Assembly: GCA_046583365.1 (NCBI GenBank)
Contig: JAYGCL010000079.1
Span: forward strand, 17,508-81,507
Direction of reading: 5' to 3'
DNA length: 64,000 bases
Source: Deltaproteobacteria bacterium
GTDB taxonomy: Bacteria; Desulfobacterota; Binatia; UBA1149; CAYXZP01
Shown piece by piece: positions 2,558-62,576 of this stretch. Position 1 is the first letter of the stretch. Every line of letters begins with the position of its first letter. Both the position numbers and the translations under genes were made by a program. The notes under the pieces were generated by a model that saw nothing but the letters and a program-made list of their open reading frames with translations, ran no database searches and was not told where the DNA came from.

Positions 2558-2559
2558 CG

Positions 2560-5085
<2,526 letters not shown>

Positions 5086-5255
5086 TTACCGGACCTTTTA
5101 TGTGGAGCCTGCAACAGCCCCCGGGGGAGCCATAAAGCTATCAAATTGGAACCTGTAAGTAAAGCAGCTAATGCCACTAAAACCCTTTAAATAAAAGGAT
5201 TTCTAGCACATCCGGGACATATTCCCGGCGACCCGAGGAAGCAGGTTCAGAGGCC

Positions 5256-6371: not shown

Positions 6372-6584
6372 GGGTACTTCCTATCAGTAATGTAATATCT
6401 TTCTGTTGTTTTTTTAAAGTGCACACATATGTGGATATCTATCCTAAGTTGCTGGAAAACTTATTTTTAATGCTTGTTTTGACCTGTGTGTTGGGTGTTT
6501 GCTGGCCTGCATATCTTTGTAGCAGGGCTCAGGCAAGGGTCGTTTTGTCCTCCTGACGGGGGTTTTGTGCAGGACTTATCCACA
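6372..6584. promoter_or_regulatory. Candidate oriC segment in the dnaA-dnaN intergenic region. A ~100-bp AT-rich stretch (~6380-6480, candidate DUE) is flanked by DnaA boxes TGTGGATAT (6430-6438, 8/9) and TTATCCACA (6576-6584, perfect, overlapping the dnaA stop).
   Basis: Seen directly: the stretch is about 30% GC in a roughly 66% GC window, and the boxes match the consensus TTATCCACA. Confidence 0.5.
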
Positions 6585-24130: not shown

Positions 24131-24136
24131 GTATAT

Positions 24137-25546: not shown

Positions 25547-25553
25547 AGCGGCC

Positions 25554-27014
25554 GTGGGCACACACGTGATGGGAATAGATGCCGGCACCACGGGGGTGCG
25601 GGCGTTGGTCTTTGATGAGACCGGGGGGGTCGTGGGCCGGGCCTACCGGGAACTGAAGGTGGATTTCCCACAGCCCGGCTGGGTGGAGCAGGATGCCGGC
25701 CTGGTGTGGTCGGCAACGCTGGAGGTGGCCCTTGCGGCCGTGTCCGAGGCCGGCCTTGTTCCCTCCGACCTTGGGGCCATAGGCATTGCCAACCAGCGCT
25801 CTTCCGTCGTGGCCTGGGACGGAGTTTCCCTGAGCCCGCTCTCTCCTCTGATCGCCTGGCAGGACCTGCGCACGCAAAACCGTTGCACGCAGTTGATGGC
25901 CGAGGGTTTTTACATCATTCCGATGCAGGCCGCCTCCAAGGCCGAATGGATCCTGGCCAATTGCCCGGCCGCTGCCACGGCTGCCAAGGCGGGCCATCTC
26001 CGCCTTGGCACGCCCAATAGCTGGTTGGCCGCGTGTTTAAGCGGCGGCGTCCACGCCTGTGACCACGCCAACGCCAGCACCACCGGCTTGTACGCCCATG
26101 TTGAGAGGGGTTGGGACGAGACTGTAATGCAGGCCTTGGGCCTGCAGCGGTCCTGGATGCCCGAACTGGTCGAGTCGAATACGGTTTTTGCCACCACGGC
26201 CGCCGACGTTTTCGGGGCCGAGGTGCCGCTGGCCTCTATGTGCGGTGACCAGCAGGCTTCGCTTTTTGGCCTGGGTTGCACCGAGGTGGGCCAGACCAAG
26301 TGTTCCTACGGTACCGCCGCGATGGTTGATTCCAATACCGGGTTTTCAATGACCGCGGCCGGTCCGGGCACCTACCCATTGGTGGCCTGGAGCTTTGACG
26401 GCCGCCCCACCTATTGCACCGAGGGCACGGTGGTTACGGCCGGAGCCGCCGTTCAGTGGTTGCGAGACGGACTCGGCTTGATCCAGCATGCCGCCGAAAC
26501 CTCCGCGCTGGCCCAGAGCATCAACGATGCCGGAGGAGTGTGGGCGGTGCCGGCACTGCAAGGGGTCGGCACCCCGATAATGGACCCATCCGCCCGGGCT
26601 ATGCTGGCCGGCCTGACGCGGGCCTCGGGCAAGGCCGAGGTCGTAAGGGCGGTGTTGGAGGGAATCGCCAACCGTGTAAGCGATGCGGCCGAGAGTCTGT
26701 GGTCGGAGAACGCGGGTCCGGCCGTATTGCGTGTCGATGGGGGCGCCAGCGCCAATGACTTTCTCATGCAACGCCAGGCCGACCTGCTCGGCATTGCCGT
26801 TGAGCGCGGGCGTGAGACCAATGGTGCCGCTTTGGGCGTGGCCGCCATGGCCGCGGCCGCTACCGGATTGTGGCAGGGCGATTGTTCGGGGGGAGCCTGG
26901 CAGCTTGAGCGTTGTTTTGAACCCTCAATCGACGAACAGCAAAGACAAGACGAACGTGGACTATGGGCCAAACGCCTGCAGGGGGCCGTGGCCCTGAGCC
27001 GCGTCGCAGACTGA
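25554..27014 (+). CDS. glpK: FGGY-family carbohydrate kinase, glycerol-kinase-like
   Basis: MGIDAGTTGVRALVFD, QPGWVEQDA, GIANQR, GDQQASLFG and VDGGASANDFLMQ parallel the GlpK motifs. Confidence 0.7.
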   Translation: MGTHVMGIDAGTTGVRALVFDETGGVVGRAYRELKVDFPQPGWVEQDAGLVWSATLEVALAAVSEAGLVPSDLGAIGIANQRSSVVAWDGVSLSPLSPLIAWQDLRTQNRCTQLMAEGFYIIPMQAASKAEWILANCPAAATAAKAGHLRLGTPNSWLAACLSGGVHACDHANASTTGLYAHVERGWDETVMQALGLQRSWMPELVESNTVFATTAADVFGAEVPLASMCGDQQASLFGLGCTEVGQTKCSYGTAAMVDSNTGFSMTAAGPGTYPLVAWSFDGRPTYCTEGTVVTAGAAVQWLRDGLGLIQHAAETSALAQSINDAGGVWAVPALQGVGTPIMDPSARAMLAGLTRASGKAEVVRAVLEGIANRVSDAAESLWSENAGPAVLRVDGGASANDFLMQRQADLLGIAVERGRETNGAALGVAAMAAAATGLWQGDCSGGAWQLERCFEPSIDEQQRQDERGLWAKRLQGAVALSRVAD

Positions 27015-27026
27015 CGGGCGAAGGGC

Positions 27027-27656
27027 GTGGGGTTTGAACTGGTCGTTTTTGACTGCGACGGAGTGCTGTTTGATTCCGACGGTGCCAATTGGGCCTTCTA
27101 TGATGAGATCATGAAGCGGGCCGGCCAGCCCCCCTTGCCGGAGACCGCCAGACCAGACGCCAGTGCCCTGGCCTCGGCCCAGCTGTTTCAGCGTTACTAC
27201 GGTGACGATCCCGAGTCTCTGGCCACCATTCGTGCCACGGCGCGGGCGACCGATTACGGTCCGTTCTTCTCCCTCATGAAACCACGCAGCGACCTGCGCC
27301 AGGTGATTGAGGGTCTCAGGGGCCGCTACCAAACGGCCATGGCCAGCAACCGCAGCCGCACGCTTGGCGGCGTGATAGAACATTTCGGGCTTGAGGGCCT
27401 GTTCGACCTTGTCGTCGGTGTGGCCGACGTCAAACATCCAAAGCCCGCCCCCGACATGCTGCTCGAATGCAGCCGTCGGCTGGGGGTGGACCCCGGCCGG
27501 GCGGTCTACGTGGGCGACCAGGAAAGCGACCGCCTGTCGGCCGCTGCCGCCGGCATGGTCTTTGTCGGCATCGGCGCTGCTGTGGCCGCCGCCGAGTTCA
27601 GGATCAACACCCTTGAGGAGCTGGAACCCCTGCTTGCGAGTATCGATTGCGCCTAG
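27027..27656 (+). CDS. HAD-superfamily hydrolase (phosphoglycolate/sugar-phosphate phosphatase-like)
   Basis: Motif I VVFDCDGVLFDS and motif IV VYVGDQESDRLSAAAAGMVFV. Confidence 0.7.
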   Translation: MGFELVVFDCDGVLFDSDGANWAFYDEIMKRAGQPPLPETARPDASALASAQLFQRYYGDDPESLATIRATARATDYGPFFSLMKPRSDLRQVIEGLRGRYQTAMASNRSRTLGGVIEHFGLEGLFDLVVGVADVKHPKPAPDMLLECSRRLGVDPGRAVYVGDQESDRLSAAAAGMVFVGIGAAVAAAEFRINTLEELEPLLASIDCA

Positions 27657-28335: not shown

Positions 28336-29334
28336 TCAGCCGGCCGCCGGGGCCAGCTGGTTGAGACGGTCGATGAGGGTGCGAAGGCGGCCGTAGCTTT
28401 CCATGTCGAAGTGCGTCGTCAGGCGGGTGAGTCCGTCGAGGGCCGGCTCGTCGAACTCTTCCTTGAAAACCCCTCGCTGTCGTATCGGTTGTCCGCCGAG
28501 GATGTCCGAGAACTCTTCGGACAGGCTCGCCAACGCGGTCTCCCCCAACTTTTGCGTGGTACGCAGGACCAGGCGGCGGCGGATCACGCGGGAAGAGTGG
28601 TAGCAGCGGTAGAAGTCGGTGATGTGTTGCACGGCTGTGTCGACGTTGTCGGTAATGGAGTAAAGGTTGAGGTCGGTGGGACTGATAAGGCCCCGGCCGA
28701 GGAGGTGGCGACGCACGTAGTCGTCCCAGCCCTGCCAGTAGTCTCCGCCGGGGATGTCGAGAAGGATTATGGGCATCAGTTGGGCCTTGCCGGTTTGCAC
28801 CAGGGTCAGCGTTTCAAAGCCTTCATCGTGGGTGCCGAAACCGCCGGGCAGAAGTACCACGGCCGAGGACTCTTTTAAGAAGAACAGTTTGCGGGTGAAG
28901 AAGTATTTAAAGTCCACCAGCTTGCGGTCTCCGCGGATCACCGGGTTGGCCACGTTCTCAAAGGGCAGTTTTATATTGACCCCGAAGCTGCGCTTGCGCC
29001 CGGCTCCCTGTTGGCAGGCCTCCATGATGCCGGGCCCGGCTCCGGTGATAACCATGAAGCCGGCATCGGCGATGCGCCGGGAAAAGTCGCGGGCCAGGTC
29101 ATAGATCGGCGTGTCGGGGCGAGTACGGGCCGAACCGAAGGTCGTTACCTTGCGCACCGAGGCGTAGGGACGAAAGCAGGCCAGGCCCCGGCGGATCTCG
29201 TCCATGGCCGACTCGATGAGTTTGAGGTCGGCCACCGCGATGCCGTCGTCGGCTAGGTTGAGGCAGGTCTGTATGAGCTTGGCCAGTAAGGGGCCGGTTC
29301 TGGGGTCGTCGATTTTGTCGGAAGGCTTGCCCAT
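28336..29334 (-). CDS. LOG-family protein, long form (TIGR00730 Rossmann fold with N-terminal extension)
   Basis: VTTFGSARTRPDTPIYDLARDFSRRIADAGFMVITGAGPGIMEA...LLPGGFGTHDEGFETLTLVQTGK. Confidence 0.7.
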   Translation of the reverse strand: MGKPSDKIDDPRTGPLLAKLIQTCLNLADDGIAVADLKLIESAMDEIRRGLACFRPYASVRKVTTFGSARTRPDTPIYDLARDFSRRIADAGFMVITGAGPGIMEACQQGAGRKRSFGVNIKLPFENVANPVIRGDRKLVDFKYFFTRKLFFLKESSAVVLLPGGFGTHDEGFETLTLVQTGKAQLMPIILLDIPGGDYWQGWDDYVRRHLLGRGLISPTDLNLYSITDNVDTAVQHITDFYRCYHSSRVIRRRLVLRTTQKLGETALASLSEEFSDILGGQPIRQRGVFKEEFDEPALDGLTRLTTHFDMESYGRLRTLIDRLNQLAPAAG

Positions 29335-41178: not shown

Positions 41179-41865
41179 CTCCCCCGCCTTGCCTATCCTT
41201 GCCATCGGGCAGGCCCGCCCCATGCTTTCCCTTATCCCTTCCTTGGCCAGGCTTGCCTCGGTCATCTCGGAGGCAAACCAGGCCGGTGCGATGGCGTTTA
41301 CGGTTATGCCGTCGCCGGCCCACTCAACGGCCAACTGCCGGGTCAGGTTTTCCACCCCGCCCTTGGCGGCGGCGTAGGCGGCGATTCTGAACAGAGAGCT
41401 TCCAAGGTGGCCGAAGATCGAGGCGATGTTGATAATACGCCCTTCTTTGCCACCCCGCATGGACTCGGCGCCAAGCAGGCAGCAGTGGAACAGAGCGCTC
41501 AGGTTAAGGTCCAGCGATGTCTGCCAGTCTTTGGGCCATTGGCGCTCGGCCGCCCCCGTGGGTGCCGTGCCGGCGTTGTTTACCAATGCATAGACAGGAC
41601 CAAGCCCGACCTCCACTTCCCTGAAGGCCCGTCGCCTGTCCTCTTCGTTGTTCAAGTCAACGGCTACAGGAAGGACCTCGGCCCCATACTCGGACCTCAG
41701 CTTGGCGGCCACTTCCTCAAGACGCTCACGGCGCCTGGCCATAAGGGCCACACGGGCGCCGGCAGCGGCCAGGGCTTCGGCAAACTCTACGCCGAGGCCT
41801 GCCGAGGCCCCGGTCACAACGGCGGTTCTGCCGTCGAAGCCGAAAAGTTCATTGAGGCCATTCAT
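41086..41865 (-). CDS. SDR-family oxidoreductase
   Basis: TAVVTGASAGLG cofactor motif, the NNAG motif, and the catalytic Y-x3-K (AAYAAAKGG). Confidence 0.75.
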   Translation of the reverse strand: MNGLNELFGFDGRTAVVTGASAGLGVEFAEALAAAGARVALMARRRERLEEVAAKLRSEYGAEVLPVAVDLNNEEDRRRAFREVEVGLGPVYALVNNAGTAPTGAAERQWPKDWQTSLDLNLSALFHCCLLGAESMRGGKEGRIINIASIFGHLGSSLFRIAAYAAAKGGVENLTRQLAVEWAGDGITVNAIAPAWFASEMTEASLAKEGIRESMGRACPMARIGKAGELKTACLFLASPSSSYVTGTVVAVDGGYSAW

Positions 41866-42410
41866 GATAGCAGTCCGGTCTCCCTCAGTGTTTCGATCGC
41901 CTGGTTGGGGTTGTCGCATACGGTAACCAGGCGGCGGTGGCCCGGGGTTATTTCCATGAAATTACTCAGTTGCTCTATGGCATCCTTCCAGGCCTGCCCG
42001 ACTACGATCAAGGGGCGTGCCGCTATCAATCCCATGTAGAGTTCGTTCCAGGCCAGCGCCACCTCCACCAGTGTGCCTATGCCGCCGCCGAGGGCCAAGA
42101 GGGCGTCGGAGCTGTGGATGAGATGTTTCAGCCTCTGGTAGAGATCGGTGCAGCAAACCTCTTCGCTCAAATAGGGGTTGGCCTCTCTGCCCGGAAAATT
42201 TTCCACGGTGTAGCCTATTACGCGGCCGCCGCTGTGGCTGGCCCCCCGGCTCACCGCTTCCATGACGCCGGCATAGCCACCGCAGGCCACGGTGGCGCCG
42301 GCATCGCCCAACAGGCGGCCGGTCAGCAGGGCCTGCCGGTAGAGGTCGCTGTCGGGCTTGCAGGCCGAACTGCCGTATACGGAAACCGTGGGTGCTGTTG
42401 GTGCTGCCAT
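41862..42410 (-). CDS. LOG-family protein (cytokinin riboside 5-prime-monophosphate phosphoribohydrolase-like)
   Basis: GGYAGVMEAVSRGA and the PGGIGTLVE-like segment ALGGGIGTLVEV. Confidence 0.7.
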   Translation of the reverse strand: MAAPTAPTVSVYGSSACKPDSDLYRQALLTGRLLGDAGATVACGGYAGVMEAVSRGASHSGGRVIGYTVENFPGREANPYLSEEVCCTDLYQRLKHLIHSSDALLALGGGIGTLVEVALAWNELYMGLIAARPLIVVGQAWKDAIEQLSNFMEITPGHRRLVTVCDNPNQAIETLRETGLLS

Positions 42411-45501: not shown

Positions 45502-46101
45502 GTGTTCAGCGGAATCATCGAAGACCTGGGCTCGGTGGCCGCGGTGGAGCCCTTGCAGTCTGGTTCGCGGCTTACCATAAAGACGGCGCTTGAAGTCGGC
45601 GAGATCGGCTTGGGCGACAGCATTGCCGTAAACGGGGCCTGCATGACGGCGGTGGCCGTTGCAAGTAAGAGCGGCACTTTCGACGTCGACGTGTCGGCCG
45701 AATCTCTGAGGTGTACCACCCTGGGTCTTCTCAAGGCCGGCAGCCGGGTAAATCTCGAACGTTCCATACGCATGAGCGACCGTCTGGACGGCCACCTGGT
45801 CTCCGGACACGTGGACGGTACGGGTAGTCTGAGGGCAATAAAGTCCGAAGGGGAATCGTCGGTCTACTCGTTCGAAGTAGCGGCTGACCTTATGCGCTTG
45901 ATGGTGGAAAAGGGCTCGGTGGCCGTCGATGGAATAAGCCTTACCTGTTTTAACTGTAGCCGCAGCGGTTTTGATGTGGCCGTCATAGCGCATACCGCCT
46001 CCGTGACTACCCTTGGGCTGCTCACCGACGGAAACCCCGTGAACATTGAAAACGATTTGTTCGGCAAGTATGTGGCCAAGCTGGCCGGCCCGGCCGTCTA
46101 G
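45502..46101 (+). CDS. ribE: Riboflavin synthase
   Basis: MFSGIIEDLG...AVNGACMT and the duplicated lumazine-binding repeat. Confidence 0.85.
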   Translation: MFSGIIEDLGSVAAVEPLQSGSRLTIKTALEVGEIGLGDSIAVNGACMTAVAVASKSGTFDVDVSAESLRCTTLGLLKAGSRVNLERSIRMSDRLDGHLVSGHVDGTGSLRAIKSEGESSVYSFEVAADLMRLMVEKGSVAVDGISLTCFNCSRSGFDVAVIAHTASVTTLGLLTDGNPVNIENDLFGKYVAKLAGPAV

Positions 46102-47456
46102 CCGGTGGCACCACCGATGAGGTAGGGCAGCAACACGGCCATGGGGTCGACGTCGGAGTCCAGCTGTTTGCCGATTCCACTCAGCAGACCCATGACCCGC
46201 AGCACCAACAACAGGTCGGCGGAAGCCTCAACCAGCGGGTCCTTGCGCAGGGCGGTAAAGACTTCGTCGCCGATGCGCTCGACCATGGCCAGGTTGGCGT
46301 AGGCACGGCCGGTGGTGAATGCCTGGCCCAGGAAAACGTCGCCGATGAGGACCAGGGTTTCGTCTTTGCCGCTGCGGGTACGAAAGCCCAGGGCGCGAAA
46401 AGCCGAGGCCACCGCGGCGTTGTCACCCCTGGCTATGGCCGCGGCCAGAGTTATGACGGCGTTCCTGAGTTGGGCCGAGAATTCCTTGGCCAGGCCCAGG
46501 TCGACAATGGCCAGTACGGGTCCGGGCAGAACCAGGAGGTTGCCGGGGTGGGGGTCGCCGTGGAAGAAGCCATGTTCGAGAATCTGTCGGACATAGGCGC
46601 GAGTCAGCAGCGAGGCTATCTCGCGTTTGTCGATGCCTGCGTCTTCTAAAGCCTTTACATCGGTTATCTTGATGCCGTCCAGATAGGTCATGGTGAGAAC
46701 CGTGCGGCAGCTCAGCTCTTCAAACGGGGTGGGGAAGACCACGCTCGGGTCGTCGGCAAAATTGGCGATGAAGCGTCTGGCGTTGGCCGCCTCGTTGGTA
46801 AAATCCAATTCGAGAGGGATGAGTTCGACTATCTCCTTGAGAAAAAGCCTCAGGTCGAATCTTTTTTCGAGCTTGGCCAACAGGTTGATGAAGAAAGAAA
46901 AATTGGCCAGGTCGGTGGCGATGATCTTTTCGATGTTGGGGTACTGGACCTTTACGGCCACTTCGCGGCCATCGTCGAGGCGGGCCCGGTGTACCTGGGC
47001 CAGGGAAGCGGCCGCGATAGGGTGGGGGTCGATGTAGGCAAAGCAGCTGTCGAGACTACGGCCGAGTTGGTCTTCGATCCACGGTCCAATGGTTGAAAAG
47101 GGGCGTGGCGGGACACGGTCGTGGAGTTCGGAGAGAATCTCTACGTAGTCGGCCGGGAGTATGTCGGCACGGCTGCCGGCAAATTGGCAGGCTTTTATGA
47201 GCAGACCCTCCAGCCTTACGGCCGTATTTCTTATCAGCCGGGCGCTACGGTGGTGCTGGCGGTCCCAGTAGTCTTTGCGCGAGCTTGCACCCAGCAGCGC
47301 TCCCCAGGCCTGCAGTCCCTTGTACCCGACATATATGGCGACGACCATGTACGCCACCGAGGCGAAGCGGCCGATACGTACGGGCAAAGGTAGTGGGGTA
47401 GGACTTTCAGTCGTGGCCGGCGGCGTCACGTTCGAGTTGCTCGATGCGGTGCTCAA
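46098..47456 (-). CDS. ubiB: ABC1/UbiB-family atypical kinase
   Basis: AAASLAQVHRARLDDGREVAVKVQYP and the HGDPHPGNLLV motif. Confidence 0.8.
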   Translation of the reverse strand: MSTASSNSNVTPPATTESPTPLPLPVRIGRFASVAYMVVAIYVGYKGLQAWGALLGASSRKDYWDRQHHRSARLIRNTAVRLEGLLIKACQFAGSRADILPADYVEILSELHDRVPPRPFSTIGPWIEDQLGRSLDSCFAYIDPHPIAAASLAQVHRARLDDGREVAVKVQYPNIEKIIATDLANFSFFINLLAKLEKRFDLRLFLKEIVELIPLELDFTNEAANARRFIANFADDPSVVFPTPFEELSCRTVLTMTYLDGIKITDVKALEDAGIDKREIASLLTRAYVRQILEHGFFHGDPHPGNLLVLPGPVLAIVDLGLAKEFSAQLRNAVITLAAAIARGDNAAVASAFRALGFRTRSGKDETLVLIGDVFLGQAFTTGRAYANLAMVERIGDEVFTALRKDPLVEASADLLLVLRVMGLLSGIGKQLDSDVDPMAVLLPYLIGGATG

Positions 47457-47550
47457 GTTTTGCCGACGACGAGGTCAGACGCCAGGCGTAAAAAAAGATA
47501 AGCGTCCACACCACCGCATAAGCGGCACCCACATAAGCCAGGGGACTCAC
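47407..47550 (-). CDS. ccmD: Heme exporter protein D (not in ORF track)
   Basis: 47-aa ORF VSPLAYVGAAYAVVWTLIFFYAWRL...EHRIEQLERD with a single TM helix. Its GTG start overlaps the ccmC stop (GTGA). Confidence 0.45.
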   Translation of the reverse strand: MSPLAYVGAAYAVVWTLIFFYAWRLTSSSAKLEHRIEQLERDAAGHD

Positions 47551-48254
47551 CAGTTACCTCCCGCCCCGCCCACACTGCCGGCGGCCAGAATCTGAGTACG
47601 TTCTTCCAGCCTCAGCATTTTTACGCGCAGGGCCCAGAGCCACGCGAAGAGGAGTGAAAAAGCGACAAGGCATAGAATAAGGGTGGTTATCATAGCTGGA
47701 TCGTCGATGCCTCCTTCCCGATTGCGTACAACCTGTGGGTGGATGGTACGCCACAGCCTGGTTGCCAGCATGACCAATGGCACGTTGGCAGCTCCGACTA
47801 TGGCCAGGACGGCTGCAAAGCGCGGGGTCATGTCGTTGCCGCGGCCCATGGCGCGGAGCAGGAGATAGGTGGCAAACAGGAGCCACAGCACGAGGAAGGT
47901 GGTCAGACGGGTATCCCAGGTCCACCAGGTACCCCAGGCCGTACGAGCCCAGATGGAACCAGTGACCAGGACCATGGTGGCGAATATCATGCCCACCCCT
48001 ACGCCGGCGTGGGCGGCGTGGTCCCAGATAGAACGGTTGCTTTTCAGGAAAGCGATGCTCGACAGTCCGGCCACGGCAAAAGCCAGGAAACAAGTGGTGG
48101 CCGCCGGCATATGGTAGTAAAAAATTCTCTGGCTGAGCCCCAACCCCTTGTCCGTGGGCACCCACCAGAAAATCGCCCACAGGGTGACAAGCAGGAGGAC
48201 GAGAAGTATCGGTGGGCAGACCTTCAAAATAATTTTTTCTATGCGTTCGATCAT
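47547..48254 (-). CDS. ccmC: Heme exporter protein C
   Basis: WGTWWTWDTRLT tryptophan-rich (WWD) motif and conserved His residues. Start taken at MIERIEKI, which avoids an overlap with ccmB. Confidence 0.85.
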   Translation of the reverse strand: MIERIEKIILKVCPPILLVLLLVTLWAIFWWVPTDKGLGLSQRIFYYHMPAATTCFLAFAVAGLSSIAFLKSNRSIWDHAAHAGVGVGMIFATMVLVTGSIWARTAWGTWWTWDTRLTTFLVLWLLFATYLLLRAMGRGNDMTPRFAAVLAIVGAANVPLVMLATRLWRTIHPQVVRNREGGIDDPAMITTLILCLVAFSLLFAWLWALRVKMLRLEERTQILAAGSVGGAGGNW

Positions 48255-48267
48255 GGCAACCGTTTCC

Positions 48268-48927
48268 CTAATCGGTGGCGACAAACTCAAAAGCCAGCCA
48301 ACCCAGGACCAGGAAGAGTACGTCGAAGGCTACCAGTATATTCCCCCAGGCCCCCAGTAAGCCAAGCGGTTGCCCGGCCAACACCAGGGCGGTGGCTTTG
48401 ACGGCCGCTATGACGAGGGGGATTTCCAGGGGCAGCACGAGCAGGGGAAGCATGAGTTCTCGCGCTCTCGTCCCCAGGGCTGCCAGCGCAAACAGGGTGC
48501 CGGTGGCCGCCAGTCCAACCGAGCCGGCAAATAGTACGACGGCCAGCGCAGGGATGTTTTGCCAGGGGTCCAGTCCGAACATGAGCATGAAAACCGGCAG
48601 CAACATGGCTTCGAAGGTCAGTAAGAAGAGCAGGTTGACGCATAGCTTGGCCACAAACAGGGAACTACGGTCCAGCGGTGAGGCGAGCAGGGCCGACATG
48701 CAACCGTTTTCACGTTCGATGAGGAACGTACGGCTGACCCCCAGCATGGCCGACAAAACGATGGCGGCCCACAGCAGGCCGGGTGCAAGACGCCCCATGT
48801 TTTCGGCGGTAATGTCCAGGGCGAAGTTAAAGACCAACAGGATCAGTACCCCGAGTACAAAAAGCGAGAACACGGTCTCCTTGCTGCGGATTTCAAGCAG
48901 GAGGTCTTTTCGAATAAGGGCCAGCAT
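48268..48927 (-). CDS. ccmB: Heme exporter protein B
   Basis: 6-TM CcmB family (FLIERENGCMSALLASPL). Confidence 0.8.
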   Translation of the reverse strand: MLALIRKDLLLEIRSKETVFSLFVLGVLILLVFNFALDITAENMGRLAPGLLWAAIVLSAMLGVSRTFLIERENGCMSALLASPLDRSSLFVAKLCVNLLFLLTFEAMLLPVFMLMFGLDPWQNIPALAVVLFAGSVGLAATGTLFALAALGTRARELMLPLLVLPLEIPLVIAAVKATALVLAGQPLGLLGAWGNILVAFDVLFLVLGWLAFEFVATD

Positions 48928-48929
48928 AT

Positions 48930-49673
48930 CTACAACAGACCTGGGCGGATGCCGTTTTTTACCGCCTCGGAATAAATCGAAGTCATCTCGTCGGCCGTGG
49001 GCAGGCTCGGCCCGGAGCTCCAGGCCACGCGCCCACGGTGCAGGACGAAAGCGAGGTCGGATACGGCCAGGGCACGGGTGAAATCGTGGCTGGCCAATAC
49101 CATGGTGGTGCCCTCATCTTTGAGCTCGCCAAGCATGGCGGTAAGCGAAGCGGCGCCGTCCGGGTCGAGTCCGGTAAAGGGCTCATCGAGCAGTAGTAGC
49201 TCGGGGCGATGCAAGACCGCACGGGCCAACGATAGCCGTTGCAGCATGCCGCGGGAGTAGGTGCGTACGGGCCTTTGCGATACTTGCTCCAGTCCTACCC
49301 TGGATAGCATCGAGCTTACACGCCCGTTGCTGCCGTTGCCGAGACCGTAAAGATCGGCGTAGTAGTCGAGGTTCTCACGTGCGCTGAGGTCGGCGTAGAG
49401 CCAACACTCGTGGGCGAGCATGCCGATGCGGCGTCTGAGAGCGGCACTGGCGGGCAGACGTTGCCCGAAAATTTTAACGCTGCCACTGCTGGGCGTACAC
49501 AGGCCGGCCAGAATTTTAAGAAGGGTGGTTTTACCGGCGCCGTTGGAGCCGAAGATGGCGGCCGTTTGTCCGCGGGGTATTTCTAAACTGAGGCCGGACA
49601 GCGCAAACACACTACCGTAACGCCGCTCCAGTGCATTGGCCGTTACCGCCGCCTGTACGTCTAAGCCTGCCAT
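48930..49673 (-). CDS. ccmA: Cytochrome c biogenesis ABC transporter ATPase
   Basis: Walker A GSNGAGKTT, signature LSRGMLQRLSLA, and Walker B LLLLDEP. Confidence 0.8.
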   Translation of the reverse strand: MAGLDVQAAVTANALERRYGSVFALSGLSLEIPRGQTAAIFGSNGAGKTTLLKILAGLCTPSSGSVKIFGQRLPASAALRRRIGMLAHECWLYADLSARENLDYYADLYGLGNGSNGRVSSMLSRVGLEQVSQRPVRTYSRGMLQRLSLARAVLHRPELLLLDEPFTGLDPDGAASLTAMLGELKDEGTTMVLASHDFTRALAVSDLAFVLHRGRVAWSSGPSLPTADEMTSIYSEAVKNGIRPGLL

Positions 49674-50929
49674 CTGCGTCCTCTCTCTGTCAGCAGCCAG
49701 GCGGCGGCGTAGACCATGTGGTTTACCAGGGCTGCCGCCAACAGGAACAGGTCGAATCTGGCTACCAGAGCAGCCAGCAAGAGCCCGTAGGCGGTGCCCT
49801 CACGGTTGGCAAAGCGTGAGGCCGGGGGGTCGGGGGCCACCTGGTAGAGACGCCCGGCGGCGCGCAACGCCCACAGCCTCGCCAGTACCCTGCTGTGGGC
49901 CAGCCAGGCGCTGACGAGCAGGCCCACGGCGGCTACCGCGGCCGCCAGGGTCGTGCCGGTAGCCGTGGCCAGAGCCCAGAGCAAAGCCAGGTGTAGAATG
50001 ATGTCACTGGCAAAGTCGGCTTTTTCTCCTTGTGAACTGTCGCGAAGGGTGGCACGGGCCAACTGAGAGGCCACGCCGTCGAGCACCTGGGAAAAGAAGA
50101 ACGCCACGGCGCCGACCAGTCCGGCCATATAGCCGCCGCCGGCCAACACCCAGGCCGAGGCCAGGCCCAGGGCGACCTTTGCCGCGCATACGTGCATGGG
50201 AACCACGCGGGTGCCGGCAAGGCGGCGCGTTATCGGAATCGAGATGCGTTTTTGTACAAAACCAAGTTCGGGTCCGGCCGCGTTTGTATGCGTACGGCCG
50301 AAGAGTTTTGTTTCGGCGCGTTCGACCGCGACGTTGTCGCTCAGGCGGTGGCGTTGGCTTACATCCAACGTGAAAACAGCGGCTTCCCGTCCACACGCCC
50401 GGTTGATAATCTCGCCCGAGGCGTTGTCGGCCAGGTCGTCTATGAGGCGGCGTAGTTGTTTGACCGGGAGTCTGGCCAGGGGAGCCACCTCGCGGTTGCG
50501 TTCCTTGAAGCGGGCCACGGCCCGGCCGTCGGTTTCTTCGACGAACTCCATGGTGGCCCGCGGCGATATGTACCAGTCGGCGGCCACGACGAGGACCAGG
50601 TCGTCGTTGCCGCCGGCCTGGTCACCGAGAGTATCGGCGGGCATAGAGCGGGCCCGGCCGTCGAGTTCGCCGGCAATCTCGGCACCCAGGGCCCGCATGG
50701 AAGGCGGGAACAGCACCATGGGTTCCAGCCCCAGCTTGATGGCTGTGGCAACATGACGGCCCACGGCGGTCATGCCGCCAATGCGCGACACCGCGGTGCG
50801 TCCGGTTACGAGCAAGACGATGGGGTCTCGTCTGGCCCGTCCAAGGGGGGGGGGAAGTTCCACCTCTATCCTTATAACGACACCGCCTTCTAGTTTCGAC
50901 CCCGATTGCGCCGGCTTGTCCGCAACCAC
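49661..50929 (-). CDS. Bifunctional-like protein: N-terminal nucleotidyltransferase-like domain fused to a C-terminal CDP-alcohol phosphotransferase membrane domain (IPCT/DIPPS-like architecture)
   Basis: The N-terminal half has an LLVTG-RTAVSRIGG and LARLPV pattern like inositol-1-phosphate cytidylyltransferase. The C-terminal half has TM helices with VLDGVASQLARAT...GEKADFASD (a CDP-OH phosphotransferase-like motif). Confidence 0.5.
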   Translation of the reverse strand: MVADKPAQSGSKLEGGVVIRIEVELPPPLGRARRDPIVLLVTGRTAVSRIGGMTAVGRHVATAIKLGLEPMVLFPPSMRALGAEIAGELDGRARSMPADTLGDQAGGNDDLVLVVAADWYISPRATMEFVEETDGRAVARFKERNREVAPLARLPVKQLRRLIDDLADNASGEIINRACGREAAVFTLDVSQRHRLSDNVAVERAETKLFGRTHTNAAGPELGFVQKRISIPITRRLAGTRVVPMHVCAAKVALGLASAWVLAGGGYMAGLVGAVAFFFSQVLDGVASQLARATLRDSSQGEKADFASDIILHLALLWALATATGTTLAAAVAAVGLLVSAWLAHSRVLARLWALRAAGRLYQVAPDPPASRFANREGTAYGLLLAALVARFDLFLLAAALVNHMVYAAAWLLTERGRRWQA

Positions 50930-50967
50930 CTTGATACGGTCCGGCCAGTCTGAAAGTCTGCGGTCCC

Positions 50968-51975
50968 ATGCCGAGACTTCTTGCCAACTGGCGCGAAATT
51001 ATTGCCACCCAGAACCTGTCGGCCGGCCGTCAGATGGACGGCGTTTCCCGTTGGTTGCTCATCACTCGCGCCAGCGTGTTCCCCATGACCCTTATTTCCG
51101 GGCTCATAGGCGGTCTGCTGGCGGCCGGCCAACCCGACGTCGACGTGGACTGGGCAAGCTTTGCTCTGGCCCTGGCCGGGCTGCTGGTCGCGCATGCAGC
51201 CAACAACATGATCAACGACTACTTCGACCTCGAGGCCGGGGTCGACAGCCCCGGCTATACCAGGACTCTATACGCCCCGCACCCGATTCTATCCGGCCTG
51301 ATATCGCGCAAAGGTCTGTTGGCGGCCATTGCCGTTTTTAACGCAGTCAACCTGGCCATTCTCGTCTATCTCACGTCCCTGCGCGGTGCGGGCGTGGTGG
51401 CCTTTGCCCTTGCCGGCCTCGCGATCAGTGTCTTCTACGTGGCGCCGCCTCTGCGGCTCAAACACCATGGCTTCGGGGAGCCGGGGGTGGCGGTGGTGTG
51501 GGGGCCTTTGATGATAGGTGGCACTTACCTGGTTGCTACCGGCCAGATGCAGGCCTGGGTGGTAGCGGCCAGCCTGCCCTACGCAATGCTGGTCAGCTCG
51601 GTGCTGTTTGGCAAACACATAGACAAACTTGAGGCCGACCGCGACAAGGAGATCCACACCCTGCCGGTCCTCCTCGGCCACGACCGTGCCATTGCAGCCA
51701 CCCGGATCCTCATGATTGGCTTCTATGCCGCCGTTGCATTGCTGGTCGGTGCCGGGGTGTTCGGGGTGTGGACCTTGGTGGTTTTCTTTTCCCTGCCCCG
51801 CTTGCGCAGCACGCTTGAAACCTTGCGCCAACCCAAACCTGAGGTTGCCCCGGCCGGCTACCCCCTGTGGCCGCTCTGGTATGTCGCCTGGGCTTTTCGT
51901 TTGAACCGTCTGAGCGGGGGACTGTTGGTGGCCGGGCTGGCCGCGAACGTGTTCTACCCCCTTTACGTTTTTTAA
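50968..51975 (+). CDS. UbiA-family aromatic prenyltransferase (MenA-like)
   Basis: NNMINDYFDLEAGVD Asp-rich motif and about 8 TM helices. Confidence 0.7.
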   Translation: MPRLLANWREIIATQNLSAGRQMDGVSRWLLITRASVFPMTLISGLIGGLLAAGQPDVDVDWASFALALAGLLVAHAANNMINDYFDLEAGVDSPGYTRTLYAPHPILSGLISRKGLLAAIAVFNAVNLAILVYLTSLRGAGVVAFALAGLAISVFYVAPPLRLKHHGFGEPGVAVVWGPLMIGGTYLVATGQMQAWVVAASLPYAMLVSSVLFGKHIDKLEADRDKEIHTLPVLLGHDRAIAATRILMIGFYAAVALLVGAGVFGVWTLVVFFSLPRLRSTLETLRQPKPEVAPAGYPLWPLWYVAWAFRLNRLSGGLLVAGLAANVFYPLYVF

Positions 51976-59001: not shown

Positions 59002-60159
59002 GTGTTTACACAGATGCCACCGGGGACCCTCCCCTCCAGCCAGACTGCGATATCCCCCGTAGAGGAGATCATCGAGGAACTGAGGGTGGGCCGTATGGTC
59101 ATCCTCATGGACGATGAGGATCGCGAGAACGAGGGCGACGTGGTGGTGGCGGCGGAAAAAGTCACCGTCGACCAGATCAATTTCATGCTCAAGCATGCCC
59201 GCGGTCTCATCTGCATGCCGATGTCGGAAGAGCGCCTCAAGGCGTTGGGCCTGCGCATGATGGTGGCCGAGAATACGTCTCCCCTGGGGACCGCGTTTAC
59301 CGTATCGATAGATGCGGTGGCCTGCCAGGGCACCGGCATGTCGGCCAGGGACCGCACCACAACCATACGTACGGCGGCTGGCGACGATGCTGCCGCCAGG
59401 GATTTTGTCGTTCCCGGACACGTTTTTCCCCTGCGCGCCCGCGACGGCGGGGTGTTGGTAAGGACGGGACAGACCGAGGGGACTGTAGACCTTTGCCGCT
59501 TGGCCGGGTTGAAGTCGGCCGGGGTTATTTGCGAGATTTTGAACGAGGACGGGACAATGGCCCGTCTTCCGGAAATCGTCAGGTTCGCCGGCCTTCACGG
59601 CCTCAAGATTGGAACGGTTGCCGATATTATCCAGCACCGCCTTGAAAACGAGTCTCACGTCAGCTGTGTCGCCACGGCGAGGTTGCCGACGAAATTCGGC
59701 GGCGATTTCACAGTTCACATCTACCATTCGAGCGTCGAAGAAGGCGAGCACACGGTGTTGGTAAAGGGCGAGATCGACCCCGACCGTCCGGTGCTCGTTC
59801 GTGCCCATGCCGAGTATCTTCCCGGCGACGTGTTTGCCTATACCCACAGAAACACGCGCGGGGTGCTGCACTCGGCCATGAGGATGATTGCCGAGGAAGG
59901 CGCGGGTGTGATTCTCTACGTGCGCCGCCGTGGGCGTGGTGCCGAGATTCTGGCCGAGGACACTGATGCGCCGGCCAGCACCAACCCTGCGGCCCGGCTC
60001 GCCAACTTCAAGGATTACGGTATCGGTGCCCAGATTCTGCGTGACCTTGGTGTACGCAAAATCCGCCTGCTCACGAACTCCCCGCCGCGTTTTGCCAACA
60101 TCGGGGGCTATGGCCTTGAGGTTGTCGAGGTTGTGGCCGTAGAACCTATCGATACGTAA
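59002..60159 (+). CDS. ribBA: RibBA-like protein: DHBP synthase domain fused to a GTP cyclohydrolase II-like domain that lacks the zinc-binding cysteines
   Basis: RibB half has RENEGDVVVAAE and PGHVFPLRA, but TGQTEG where characterised enzymes have GHTE. In the RibA half, RAHAEYLPGD and AYTHRNTRG replace the Cys-containing SEC-LTGD and LRCDCG motifs. Confidence 0.75.
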   Translation: MFTQMPPGTLPSSQTAISPVEEIIEELRVGRMVILMDDEDRENEGDVVVAAEKVTVDQINFMLKHARGLICMPMSEERLKALGLRMMVAENTSPLGTAFTVSIDAVACQGTGMSARDRTTTIRTAAGDDAAARDFVVPGHVFPLRARDGGVLVRTGQTEGTVDLCRLAGLKSAGVICEILNEDGTMARLPEIVRFAGLHGLKIGTVADIIQHRLENESHVSCVATARLPTKFGGDFTVHIYHSSVEEGEHTVLVKGEIDPDRPVLVRAHAEYLPGDVFAYTHRNTRGVLHSAMRMIAEEGAGVILYVRRRGRGAEILAEDTDAPASTNPAARLANFKDYGIGAQILRDLGVRKIRLLTNSPPRFANIGGYGLEVVEVVAVEPIDT

Positions 60160-60715
60160 CTACGAGGTAGTGGGTGTTGAGCCCCGAATTGGCCTCGGCC
60201 CAGAGGCCGGCGTGCGATATGTGGCGCAGACGGTAACCGAGGGACCAACGGTGGGGGTCGGCGGCGCCAAAAGTCACGCCCCCGCCTATCTGGTCGCTGA
60301 ACAGGATTCGCGAGCCGAGGTTGTAGCCACGCAGGTCCGAGTAGGCCAGACCCACGCCGCCTTCCACGAAGGGACGAATGCTGCGGTCTCTAAAGCCCTC
60401 GACCCTGACCATGGGAACCACCGAGAACTCCACGGTTTCGGTATCCTTGGTGGTAAAGCCCAACAGGGGTTCGACCACCAGGGACAGGTCGAGGCCGTAG
60501 GGTTCGGTTGCCCGCTCGACCGCGGCCGGGGGTTGGAAGGAGAAACGCCAGCCGATGGCGTAGGTGACCAGGTTGCGGCCGCCCTGCTTGTGGGAGTAGC
60601 CCACGGCCAATATGGGTCCGTTGGTTCGGGCCTGGTCGACGGTTTGGGTCTGGCCGACGGCTGGCAGCAGGAGCAGGGCCAGGACCAGCAGAGCTTTGGC
60701 TGTGAGTGTATCCAT
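60146..60715 (-). CDS. PagL-like outer-membrane acyloxyacyl hydrolase/lipid A deacylase family protein
   Basis: Signal peptide, small beta-barrel, and a C-terminal RHISHAG...SGLN resembling the PagL His/Ser catalytic region. Confidence 0.5.
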   Translation of the reverse strand: MDTLTAKALLVLALLLLPAVGQTQTVDQARTNGPILAVGYSHKQGGRNLVTYAIGWRFSFQPPAAVERATEPYGLDLSLVVEPLLGFTTKDTETVEFSVVPMVRVEGFRDRSIRPFVEGGVGLAYSDLRGYNLGSRILFSDQIGGGVTFGAADPHRWSLGYRLRHISHAGLWAEANSGLNTHYLVVTYR

Positions 60716-60800
60716 CGCGCTGGTGCTTAGCCGTCGGCCGGGGCACTGGCAAACGGGCTACTCGCAAATCCGACCGGGCTCGGCTAGCGTCCGAACTGCT

Positions 60801-62576
60801 GTGTTTTTAATCCCTGGCCGTTGGACCAAGGCGGTTCTTGCCGGTGCGGCCGTATTCGCTGCGGTCACGCTCGTGGGCGCCCTGCCGACCAGTGCGGCCG
60901 ATGAGCCCGTGGTTGCACGCGTTCGGGTACTACCGGCTACGGTGGCCGGGGGCGATGCCGCCGCGGTCACCGTCGAGATCGAGATCGCCGAGGGTTGGCA
61001 CATCAACAGCAGCCAGCCGGGGCCGGAGTTTCTCATCCCCACCCGTTTGGACTTCGAACTGCCCCCCGGTTTCACCGCCGGCCAGACAGTTTACCCCGGT
61101 GCCGTCAGCCGCCGTCTCAAGGTGGCCGGCAACCGTGAGTTCAACTTCTACGAGGGTAAAATCCTGCTCAGTACCCAACTGCGCTATGCACCGGTCGACG
61201 ACCGCAAAGGCGACGGTCCCGGACGACCGCTGGCGGTGCTCAGTTACCAGGCTTGTAGCGATACGCTATGCCTGAGGCCGGCCAGCATGAGGCTTGCCCT
61301 GGACCTGGAGTTTGCGTCGGCCGCCGCCACCACCCCGCCCCGAGCCGGACCCGGCCAGGATTCGGCGGGGGCGATTGCGCGGATGGTTGGTGGCGGTCTG
61401 TGGGTGGTGATTCCGGGCATGCTGCTTTTCGGACTGGCTCTGAATCTCACCCCCTGCGTGTATCCTCTTATCTCGGTGACGGTGGCCTATTTCGGCCGCC
61501 AGGCCGGGGGCAGTCCCCGCCGCCGTTTAGTCCTGGCCCTGGCCTACAGCCTGGGAATAGCGGTGACATTTTCTGCCCTTGGGGTCAGTGCGGCGCTGTC
61601 GGGATCCTTCTTCGGCAAGGCCCTGGCCAACCCTATGGTGTTGGTGGGGGTGGCCGCCTTGATGGTGGCCCTTGCCCTGTCCTGTTTCGGCCTCTACCAG
61701 ATCCGTGTTCCCGAGGTCGTCAATTCACGACTGGGGCGGGCCGCCGGTGGCGTCTTCGGCTCCCTGTTCATGGGCATGACCATGGGCGTGGTGGCCGCAC
61801 CTTGCGTGGGACCGGTGGTGGTCGGTTTGCTGATGTTTGTAGGCAGCCGCGGTGACGTGGGGCTTGGGCTGGGTCTGTTCTTTCTGTTGGCGCTCGGGCT
61901 GGGCCTGCCCTACGTGGTCCTGGCCATGGCCGCCGGTTCTCTGGACCGCCTGCCTCGGGCCGGCGACTGGCTGCAGTGGACCGAACACCTGTTCGGTTGT
62001 GTACTGTTGGCGGCGGCTCTGTATTTCGTGGGTCCCCTTCTCCCCGACAAGCTCAGTGGTGTAGCGATGCCGGTCTATCTGGCTCTGGCGGTGTTATACT
62101 TGGCCTTTTTCGACCCCGTCGGACGTCGGCACCGGGTTTTCCGCCTCCTGAGGGCGGTGGCCGGGACCGCCGCCCTGGCGGCGATTGCGGTCGTATACAT
62201 CCCTCAATCCGGGTCCCATGGGGCCCTTTCCTGGCAGCCTTTCTCCGATGAGGCCCTGGCCGTGGCCAAGGCCAGTGGCCGGCCTTTTGTTATCGAGTTC
62301 GGGGCCGATTGGTGTCTGCCCTGCAAGGAGATGGAAGAGCGGACCTTTACCGACCCCGCCGTCCTCGGGCAGGCCCAGGGGGTATTGTTCATAGAGGTGG
62401 ACATGACGACCTCTACAGGCTACACGGACCTTGTCTTGAAACGCTTCGACGTGCTCGGAGCGCCTACCACCCTGTTTTTCGATTCCGATGGCAAAGAGGC
62501 CGCCAGAAGGATAGGCTTTATAGGTCCGCAAGACTTTCGCGACCTGCTCGTAGAGACAACACGTGTCGGCGGATAG
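60801..62576 (+). CDS. dsbD: Thiol:disulfide interchange protein DsbD
   Basis: N-terminal DsbD-alpha-like domain, a central CcdA-like TM domain, and a C-terminal thioredoxin with WCLPC. GTG start at 60801 gives a signal peptide and removes the overlap with the PagL-like gene. Confidence 0.75.
   Translation: MFLIPGRWTKAVLAGAAVFAAVTLVGALPTSAADEPVVARVRVLPATVAGGDAAAVTVEIEIAEGWHINSSQPGPEFLIPTRLDFELPPGFTAGQTVYPGAVSRRLKVAGNREFNFYEGKILLSTQLRYAPVDDRKGDGPGRPLAVLSYQACSDTLCLRPASMRLALDLEFASAAATTPPRAGPGQDSAGAIARMVGGGLWVVIPGMLLFGLALNLTPCVYPLISVTVAYFGRQAGGSPRRRLVLALAYSLGIAVTFSALGVSAALSGSFFGKALANPMVLVGVAALMVALALSCFGLYQIRVPEVVNSRLGRAAGGVFGSLFMGMTMGVVAAPCVGPVVVGLLMFVGSRGDVGLGLGLFFLLALGLGLPYVVLAMAAGSLDRLPRAGDWLQWTEHLFGCVLLAAALYFVGPLLPDKLSGVAMPVYLALAVLYLAFFDPVGRRHRVFRLLRAVAGTAALAAIAVVYIPQSGSHGALSWQPFSDEALAVAKASGRPFVIEFGADWCLPCKEMEERTFTDPAVLGQAQGVLFIEVDMTTSTGYTDLVLKRFDVLGAPTTLFFDSDGKEAARRIGFIGPQDFRDLLVETTRVGG

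Follow-up and report, generated by a model that had tools for sequence, protein, structure and literature searches.

An AF2299-like membrane protein with a degenerate CDP-alcohol phosphotransferase signature is encoded next to ccmABCD and may be a repurposed partner of heme export

The window analyzed here, a 64,000-nucleotide stretch of DNA, contains a co-oriented string of genes that begins with gene X, continues through ccmA, ccmB, ccmC, and a ccmD-like gene, and ends with a ubiB gene; a UbiA prenyltransferase gene diverges from X (Table 1). Read from its first possible start, the X open reading frame (ORF) occupies positions 49661..50929 (−) and encodes 422 aa. The real start is placed at the GTG at 50863 on three grounds: the N termini of homologues, the 400-aa length of the deposited protein P0001, and an AAGGA box that lies 5 nt upstream of this codon. 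The numbers of individual residues given below (R372, D309, and others) follow the 422-aa ORF. The GC3 of 0.75 and the existence of full-length homologues at 34 to 56% identity (24 protein clusters in one search, with further members from other searches) indicate that X is a real gene. Synonymous sites are saturated at the 35 to 55% protein identity of the X family.

Table 1. Features of the X-ccm region, in window coordinates.
Feature	Coordinates	Strand	Basis
Gene X, AF2299/IPCT-DIPPS-like two-domain membrane protein with degenerate signatures, 400 aa	49661..50863	−	ORF, homologue N termini, RBS, fold matches
Cytosolic N-domain, nucleotidyltransferase (IspD/GlmU-like) fold, best-conserved part of the X family	50285..50824	−	predicted fold
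LVTGRTAV, strand-1 loop in place of the GxG(T/S)R...K nucleotidyltransferase signature	50789..50812	−	translation
Juxtamembrane helix and six-helix CDP-alcohol phosphotransferase-like membrane domain	49664..50284	−	
PMHVC at the P(D/N)xx(T/S) position, D/N replaced by Met	50186..50200	−	translation
Degenerate CDP-AP signature DGVASQLARATLRDSSQGEKADFASD: D2 to Ala, G1 to Ser; D1, A-R, G2, D3, and D4 kept	50003..50080	−	translation, family tables
13-nt overlap: X TAG stop (49661–49663) inside ccmA, ccmA ATG at 49673	49661..49673	−	sequence
ccmA, ABC ATPase	48930..49673	−	Pfam ABC_tran 5e-34
ccmB, heme exporter permease	48268..48927	−	Pfam CcmB 3.7e-27
ccmC, WWD-domain heme-handling protein, 235 aa, WGTWWTWD motif	47547..48254	−	Cytochrom_C_asm 9e-28, TIGR01191 125 bits
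ccmD-like 47-aa single-helix protein	47407..47550	−	translation
UbiB/ABC1 atypical kinase	46098..47429	−	Pfam ABC1 1e-74
X/UbiA divergent intergenic region, 104 bp	50864..50967	.	coordinates
Divergent MenA/UBIAD1-like UbiA prenyltransferase	50968..51975	+	Pfam UbiA 1e-26

The coordinates confirm the 13-nt overlap of X with the ccmA start and the divergent arrangement of X and the UbiA gene, both noted in a preliminary description of this locus. X is invariably the leading gene of the ccmABCD operon and is translationally coupled to ccmA. In every locus that reaches past the X stop, ccmA, ccmB, and ccmC follow directly, and the X-ccmA-ccmB-ccmC order was also found in four loci reached independently via CcmC homologues. 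Wherever genes were called in orthologous loci, the X-ccmA junction is an overlap or a gap of ~60 nt or less; it stays tight down to ~35% identity, while the UbiA, UbiB, and patatin neighbors vary. In most orthologous loci with called genes, the ccmD position is filled by an ORF of 44 to 81 aa, though L029 has no such call, and UbiB, whose presence is variable, closes the string in about two thirds of the loci. Conservation of gene order in every locus examined thus supports the earlier proposal that X is co-transcribed with the cytochrome c maturation genes. The X family is small, and all its members come from MAGs that have this synteny; several of the MAGs are labeled Binatia.

The ccmA product scored 131.6 bits against TIGR01189, which is exactly the cutoff of that model; its top NCBIfam model was drrA, at a score below the drrA cutoff. 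A pathway for a teichoic-acid-like CDP-glycerol polymer with an ABC-2 exporter, considered in view of the DrrA match, was rejected because ccmB, ccmC (with its WWD domain), and ccmD are genuine.

The range of the preliminary description, 49661-51975, takes in the UbiA gene as well as X. The MenA-like prenyltransferase named there was confirmed: the best solved relative of the UbiA protein is UBIAD1 (5e-11). All NCBIfam models scored under their cutoffs. When positions 47300-51200 were scanned, no sigma-70-like promoter site was found between X and the UbiA gene; matches resembling terminators lie inside genes and are not credible. Across the orthologous loci, UbiA often neighbors X but does not do so everywhere. 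The UbiA gene does not adjoin X in L008/L018, L016, L022, and L038, lies ~1.7 kb away in L020, and was not detected in the L023 or L049 loci. A role of X tied to UbiA, be it in archaeal-type ether lipid synthesis or in quinone or lipid modification, was therefore down-weighted, and the earlier suggestion of a lipid or quinone modification now looks weak.

The AF2 model of X (pLDDT 85.5) predicts the six-helix membrane fold with a juxtamembrane helix that is found in class I CDP-alcohol phosphotransferases (CDP-APs; PF01066), preceded by a domain with the nucleotidyltransferase fold that IPCT/DIPPS requires. The best whole-chain structural matches were IPCT-DIPPS (4mnd, the top Foldseek match at 3e-11) and AF2299. 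The previously proposed order of a nucleotidyltransferase half followed by a CDP-alcohol phosphotransferase half is thus real at the fold level, and sequence comparison detects the membrane half only. The top NCBIfam match, IPCT/DIPPS NF041135, is partial (32.1 bits versus a cutoff of 580 bits, residues 225-344 only) and falls in the membrane half; the N-terminal half received no HMM assignment. Neither X nor P0027 matched any Pfam family at E ≤ 0.1, and the nine outside relatives that were scanned all match PF01066. When a profile of X was searched against the PDB, AF2299 (4.7e-10) ranked above IPCT-DIPPS (4.3e-6), and PIP synthases came next; the N-domain had no match even at E ≤ 10, including any solved IPCT.

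The LARLPV and degenerate GxGTRL-like (LVTGRTAV) stretches pointed out earlier are both present in the X translation. Inspection of the catalytic residues of the nucleotidyltransferase half showed that GxG(T/S)R...K is absent: LVTGRTAV is followed by SRIGG, with no Lys-bearing loop. The L, V, G, R, and A residues of LVTGRTAV are invariant across the family, and many invariant Arg, Thr, and Asp residues lie around this loop. Aligned by hhalign with a small set of GlmU sequences, the N-domain gave no significant match (probability 1.3%), so that the gaps placed at GKRM and at the Lys are only suggestive.

A profile search with X returned 4115 relatives at E ≤ 0.001, and most of the best 150 are ~400 aa long. 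The two-domain architecture, earlier described as unexpected, is therefore common among the nearest relatives; in the nine scanned outside relatives, too, an N-terminal half without Pfam annotation precedes a canonical CDP-AP domain. The nearest outside relatives (among them P0041, P0043, P0059, and P0070; E values of 1e-32 to 1e-22) are uncharacterized, and in several ~400-aa proteins of this kind the match to X extends through the N-domain. GxGxR near the N terminus was found in only 1 of 97 of them. They differ from X in the membrane half: among 114 outside relatives with 300 aa or more, 110 have the full CDP-AP signature, in contrast to 0 of 33 X-family members. The two canonical relatives whose context was inspected are, unlike X, not located beside ccm genes. 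X has diverged from within a large clade of two-domain proteins that are ~400 aa long and have a canonical membrane half.

Archaeoglobus fulgidus AF2299 (PDB 4o6m/4o6n/4q7c) is a CDP-alcohol phosphotransferase with the same domain order as X and a conserved AE..L linker helix. Its N-domain is described only as cytidylyltransferase-like (PMC4634129); a signature-less domain of this type is homologous across the AF2299-like clade, and X conforms to this pattern. However, AF2299 contains the full DGCDGEIAR...G...D...D and binds CDP, CMP, and CDP-glycerol, while X has DGVASQLAR and lacks P(D/N). The solved AF2299 chains are also shorter (~330 to 340 residues modeled versus 400 in X), the protein is archaeal, and no ccm link for it was found in the literature retrieved.

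The canonical class I signature, D1xxD2G1xxAR...G2xxxD3xxxD4, comprises eight conserved residues (PMC4634129; also PMC8727905), and P(D/N)xx(T/S) on helix 1 is the cytosine-contacting motif (PMC4634129). In the X protein of the window, the signature starts as DGVASQLAR and continues as G...D...D, with D309 as D4. D2 is missing in all 36 distinct variants of the family (and in 25 of 25 members tabulated), and D1 is Gly in 7 of the 36. G1 and G2 are each retained in roughly half of the variants, and a whole subclade, found in the same place in the operon, has lost all four of D1, D2, G1, and G2. None of the 25 members has the cytosine-contacting D/N, and about half have Ser at the T/S position. 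Other positions are preserved: the signature Arg is present in 36 of 36 variants, D3 is Asp or Glu in essentially all variants, D4 is Asp or Glu in every variant that covers the column, and strongly conserved polar residues (R372, R376, D393, H404, and Y407) are found in helices 5 and 6. Columns conserved at 90% or more make up 31% of the N-domain but 12% of the TM2-TM3 signature region, which is the least conserved part of X. The pattern is inverted relative to what is expected for the signature region of an enzyme, and the donor and metal site has decayed in the X family.

The likeness to IPCT/DIPPS put forward in the preliminary description therefore needs to be divided: the architecture stands, as judged by the 4mnd and AF2299 structural matches, but the definition does not. 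Like X, IPCT/DIPPS (AF0263, 4mnd, NF041135) has a nucleotidyltransferase-fold domain in front of a CDP-AP domain of six helices, yet it is an active cytidylyltransferase making CDP-inositol and has a complete DGCDGEIAR...G...D...D (PMC8727905), and X lacks both signatures. We consider it very improbable that X works as a true bifunctional IPCT/DIPPS, or as an archaetidylinositol/PIP-type synthase, and makes di-myo-inositol phosphate or an inositol lipid. Such an enzyme would account for the top NCBIfam and Foldseek matches; it is difficult to reconcile with a score so far under the model cutoff or with the N-domain and membrane signatures just described. No myo-inositol-1-phosphate synthase, a genomic companion of IPCT/DIPPS, was seen among the ~45 ORFs of the window scanned with Pfam. 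No evidence was found for di-myo-inositol phosphate or another compatible solute, products suggested earlier. A routine PgsA-type phosphatidylglycerophosphate synthase was rejected as well, since X had no match to TIGR00560 or PRK10832 and the ranking of solved relatives points elsewhere. Because catalytic signatures are missing in both halves, X is most probably neither of these enzymes.

The explanation that we tentatively prefer, while allowing that it may well be wrong, is that X is a repurposed, non-canonical inner-membrane protein of the AF2299 type that serves as a lineage-specific partner of CcmABCD heme export. Such a protein would no longer perform canonical CTP-dependent activation followed by CDP-alcohol transfer, and its synthesis would keep pace with that of CcmA. 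The Arg-rich cytosolic domain and the retained pocket of X may serve to hold an anionic ligand or as a docking site for the transporter, and its role at CcmABCD could be structural, regulatory, or substrate-presenting. Retention of the signature Arg, D3, and D4 (the catalytic base) in nearly all members argues against repurposing, being untypical of a fully dead enzyme. Moreover, no Ccm step that we know of calls for such a partner, whether in the cytosol or in the membrane.

The same residues favor a serious rival, which we regard as possible although doubtful: X may still be an enzyme, a non-canonical phosphotransferase acting through D3, D4, the signature Arg, and the Arg/His/Tyr pocket of helices 5 and 6. 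It could use one metal or a different activated donor. The N-domain has many invariant Arg, Thr, and Asp residues and might use its own TGRTA/Arg-rich site to bind a nucleotide or activate it. The reaction would yield a phospho-alcohol, head group, or modified lipid, whether or not this is used in cytochrome c maturation. In yeast Cpt1, the D113A substitution (equivalent to D2) left activity at the wild-type level (Williams & McMaster 1998, cited in PMC8727905), so that the loss of D2 seen in the X protein of the window need not by itself abolish catalysis. In contrast, G1 and G2 are essential in Cpt1 (PMC8727905) and unconserved in the X family. The subclade devoid of D1, D2, G1, and G2, the consistently missing cytosine contact, the weak conservation of the signature region, and the lack of GxGxR...K also argue against an active transferase. 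An unlikely alternative is that X has no tie to cytochrome c maturation and is a lineage-specific lipid or envelope protein kept in place by ancestral gene order near the replication origin. The flanks are largely syntenic, with genes for thiolase, YkuD, Ogt, GlmU, and GlmS on one side and riboflavin synthase, a Zn-ribbon protein, and ClpB on the other. All members thus seem to come from one lineage, and the X-ccm adjacency therefore in part reflects phylogenetic inertia, which also counts against the preferred explanation. However, other genes of the block do shift: UbiA is lost or displaced, UbiB is variable, and patatin or PNPOx is inserted, with the X-ccmA junction remaining tight throughout.

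X is co-oriented and translationally coupled with the genuine ccmA, ccmB, ccmC, and ccmD of a System I locus. The retrieved abstracts that describe System I name CcmA-H or CcmA-I only, and in a full-text literature search linking CDP-alcohol with Ccm the sole match concerns mitochondrial ancestry. Since the lineage that has X always produces it together with CcmA, and X is absent from these descriptions, it is a candidate extra System I component. A more specific form of the preferred reading, which we judge rather unlikely, is that X is an unrecognized cytoplasm-facing part of System I (“CcmABCD+X”), an enzyme-derived pseudo-transferase that gates, regulates, or feeds heme or a required lipid or cofactor to CcmAB/CcmC. 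The Arg-rich nucleotidyltransferase-fold domain and the retained acceptor-side pocket would then act from the cytoplasmic side. To our knowledge, the mechanism by which heme reaches CcmABCD from that side is still open.

The practical value of the finding is modest; the host organisms are uncultured, and all evidence on X is genomic and from structural prediction. Whether or not X acts with CcmABCD, its family is a clear example from nature of the CDP-alcohol phosphotransferase scaffold persisting under selection after the loss of metal-binding aspartates. It is relevant to the questions of which signature residues are truly indispensable and how non-catalytic parts arise from membrane enzymes.

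The interval given in the preliminary description comprises two genes, X (a two-domain membrane protein heading ccmABCD) and a UbiA-family prenyltransferase gene 104 bp away. The start of X was placed at the GTG at 50863, yielding 400 aa, because homologue N termini, the 400-aa deposited protein record P0001 and an AAGGA box 5 nt upstream agree. The TAG stop of X falls within ccmA, which starts with an ATG at 49673, and the 13-nt overlap noted earlier is borne out, as is the overall arrangement of X, downstream ccm genes and a divergent UbiA gene. The UbiA-gene product is closest to UBIAD1 among solved structures (5e-11); all NCBIfam MenA-type models scored under their own cutoffs. For the CcmA ATPase, the top model was DrrA (174.7 bits, under the DrrA cutoff), the ccmA equivalog score was exactly at cutoff (131.6 bits), and a C-terminal extension runs ~50 aa past the end of the ccmA model.

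Features of the window, with X and its neighbors
Feature	Position	Strand	Remarks
gyrA	95-2557	-	in row with gyrB, dnaN and dnaA (95..7967)
gyrB	2560-5064	-	same row
dnaN	5256-6371	-	same row
dnaA	6576-7967	-	same row
Glycerol utilization cluster	22463..27656	+	GlpD-type glycerol-3-phosphate dehydrogenase, FAD-linked oxidase, FGGY (glycerol) kinase, HAD phosphatase
LOG/SLOG-cluster-4 ("possible lysine decarboxylase") paralogue	28336..29334	-	one of two
ORF, 429 aa	31508..32797	-	coding-type GC3; no Pfam family at thresholds used
ORF, 287 aa	38639..39502	-	coding-type GC3; no Pfam family at thresholds used
LOG/SLOG-cluster-4 paralogue	41862..42410	-	second of two
ORF, 233 aa	43430..44131	+	coding-type GC3; no Pfam family at thresholds used
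Riboflavin synthase (Lum_binding)	45502..46101	+	adjoins ubiB
UbiB/ABC1 kinase gene		same as X	after ccmD-like ORF
ccmD-like ORF, 47 aa	47407..47550	-	downstream of X
ccmC	47547..48254	-	downstream of X; WGTWWTWD motif
ccmB	48268..48927	-	downstream of X
ccmA	48930..49673	-	downstream of X
X, longest ORF	49661..50929	-	ORF scan
UbiA-family prenyltransferase	50968..51975	opposite to X	Pfam UbiA 1e-26
RibBA fusion	59002..60159	+	after glmS
DsbD-type thiol:disulfide interchange protein	60612..62576	+	DsbD_N, DsbD_TM, thioredoxin domains

Sequence methods detected the membrane half of X only. No Pfam family matched X, and the NCBIfam IPCT/DIPPS equivalog reached 32 bits (residues 225-344) against a cutoff of 580. 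A profile of the X family (X and its homologues) matched AF2299, the two-domain CDP-alcohol phosphotransferase of Archaeoglobus fulgidus (4.7e-10), IPCT-DIPPS (4.3e-6) and PIP synthases (~1e-3), always on the membrane domain. An AlphaFold2 model built from 25 homologues was confident (pLDDT 85.5, pTM 0.79). The leading whole-chain Foldseek matches were IPCT-DIPPS (4mnd, 3e-11) and AF2299 (7e-10), followed, for the N-terminal half, by the nucleotidyltransferases IspD, GlmU and RmlA (~3e-4). Structural comparison scored 21.3 for the AF2299 N-domain/PIP-synthase fusion (5d92_D), 19.2 for 4mnd, 16.7 for Mycobacterium tuberculosis PIP synthase (6h5a) and 14.8 for IspD (164 residues aligned). By these matches, the proposed order, a nucleotidyltransferase half followed by a CDP-alcohol phosphotransferase membrane half, is right at fold level. 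Neither refuting outcome named in the preliminary description applies: the nucleotidyltransferase fold is present in the N-terminal half, and X is not a routine PgsA-type enzyme.

The CDP-alcohol phosphotransferase signature consists of eight conserved residues, D1xxD2G1xxAR...G2xxxD3xxxD4, with D1 to D3 as metal ligands and D4 as catalytic base, and contact with the cytosine ring is made by a P(D/N)xx(T/S) motif (PMC4634129; PMC8727905). In the window's X, the signature reads DGVASQLARATLRDSSQGEKADFASD, with D2 replaced by Ala and G1 by Ser, and PMHVC occupies the cytosine-motif position. Neither Asp at D2 nor the D/N of the cytosine motif occurs in any of 25 homologues. Among 36 distinct X-family variants recovered from all loci, D1 is Asp in 28, Gly in 7 and Glu in 1; D2 is never Asp; about half keep each of G1 and G2; the Arg is kept in 36/36; and D3 and D4 are essentially all Asp or Glu. 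D1, D2, G1 and G2 are lost together in a deeper, 35-40% identical subclade (loci L007, L026-L028 and L044-L050). In several of its members, helix 4 is followed by an insertion that reaches ~30 aa at most, and several of its loci have a patatin-like lipase between thiolase and UbiA. The complete signature is present in 110 of the 114 nearest relatives outside the family, compared with 0/33 inside.

In the N-domain, an invariant LVTGRTAV stands where GxG(T/S)R...K is expected, and a forced, nonsignificant profile alignment with GlmU leaves gaps at the Arg and the Lys loop. The wider clade shares this absence: GxGxR occurs near the N terminus in only 1/97 outside relatives. The finding is consistent with the literature, which calls the N-domains of AF2299 and DIPPS "cytidylyltransferase-like" (PMC4634129).

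An exhaustive profile search recovered true members at E <= 1e-89, forming about ten 50%-identity clusters, and, beyond a large E-value gap, 4115 relatives (E<=0.001). Lengths near 400 aa prevail among the best 150; in several relatives the match to the X profile extends from N-domain through C terminus, and 9/9 scanned have a canonical PF01066 domain after a Pfam-unannotated N-terminal half. The two-domain layout is therefore common and not, as had been thought, unexpected. The unusual feature is the degenerate active site of the X clade. At least 90% conservation is seen in 31% of N-domain columns (mean pairwise identity 0.555), 14% of membrane-half columns (0.457) and 12% of columns in the helix 2-3 signature region; conservation is thus inverted relative to what is expected for the signature region of an enzyme. 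The helix 5-6 polar residues R372, R376, D393, H404 and Y407 (422-aa ORF numbering) are conserved in both subclades.

The X family was seen in uncultured MAGs only, in one conserved chromosomal block common to all. Organism labels include Binatia, Myxococcales, Deltaproteobacteria, Proteobacteria, Dadabacteria, Hyphomicrobiaceae and Limnocylindrales, with divergent ones at L008/L018, L012, L015, L027, L029 and others; most are probably placeholder or misbinned taxonomy. In loci drawn from protein look-ups and from genome and metagenome collections, X is followed directly by ccmA-ccmB-ccmC wherever the contig extends past its stop, and no counter-example was found among these. Four further loci, reached independently from CcmC homologues (61-65% identity), all have a Pfam-less gene of 403-431 aa in the X slot; the three translated and aligned were 35-40% identical to X. 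Between X and ccmA, every locus shows either an overlap or at most ~60 nt of spacing, which supports the cotranscription suggested by the overlap in the window. The divergent UbiA gene is no constant partner: it does not adjoin X in L008/L018, L016, L022 and L038, lies ~1.7 kb away in L020 and was not detected in the L023 or L049 loci. UbiB follows ccmD in about two-thirds of loci, and some loci contain an inserted gene for a patatin or PNPOx.

Two canonical outside relatives have unrelated contexts. In L024 (366..2574), one directly follows an LPG_synthase_TM (flippase-like) gene, and in L025 the other has a gene for PEP mutase ~2.4 kb away, a hint of lipid–head group or phosphonate roles for the wider clade.

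With gyrA, gyrB, dnaN and dnaA in a row, the window begins beside a probable chromosomal replication origin. The DsbD-type gene lies ~11 kb from ccmABCD; proteins of the DsbD family provide the reductant used in cytochrome c maturation. Scanning of window ORFs revealed no ccmE, ccmF or ccmH among those covered. Riboflavin genes occur on both sides of the region, and the riboflavin synthase/Zn-ribbon pair beside the ccm string is kept in most of the orthologous loci that extend far enough downstream.

X is thus a real, conserved gene that shares the architecture of AF2299 and IPCT-DIPPS, has incomplete signatures in both halves and is invariably coupled to ccmABCD in an operon. A genuine IPCT/DIPPS making di-myo-inositol phosphate is very unlikely. 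Same-slot orthologues can do without as many as four of the eight signature residues, two of the three metal ligands among them; the shared function is therefore probably independent of canonical Mg-dependent CDP-alcohol transfer. The main rival, an atypical yet active phosphotransferase, is only somewhat less likely than the reading favored below. Three points speak for it: the family retains D3, D4 and the signature Arg, the window's copy has lost D2 and G1 only, and the D113A mutant of yeast Cpt1 (the D2 equivalent) is reported to have wild-type activity (PMC8727905). Purely historical adjacency of X and the ccm genes is less likely still; in its favor, synteny is common to all loci, which thus appear to come from one lineage.

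The most economical reading, which we favor tentatively, is that X is a repurposed scaffold working with the heme-export complex, in which an anionic ligand or a partner protein would be bound by the conserved Arg-rich cytosolic domain together with the pocket of helices 5-6. Support for these readings comes from genomic context and prediction in uncultured organisms. No X-like component figures in the published Ccm descriptions retrieved by our literature search. Overall, X belongs to a divergent subfamily within the two-domain CDP-alcohol phosphotransferases of AF2299 type; its signatures are degenerate, and it is fixed as the first gene of a ccmABCD operon. X is a candidate extra component of System I that lends itself to testing, and its family offers a natural example of metal-site decay in CDP-alcohol phosphotransferases.
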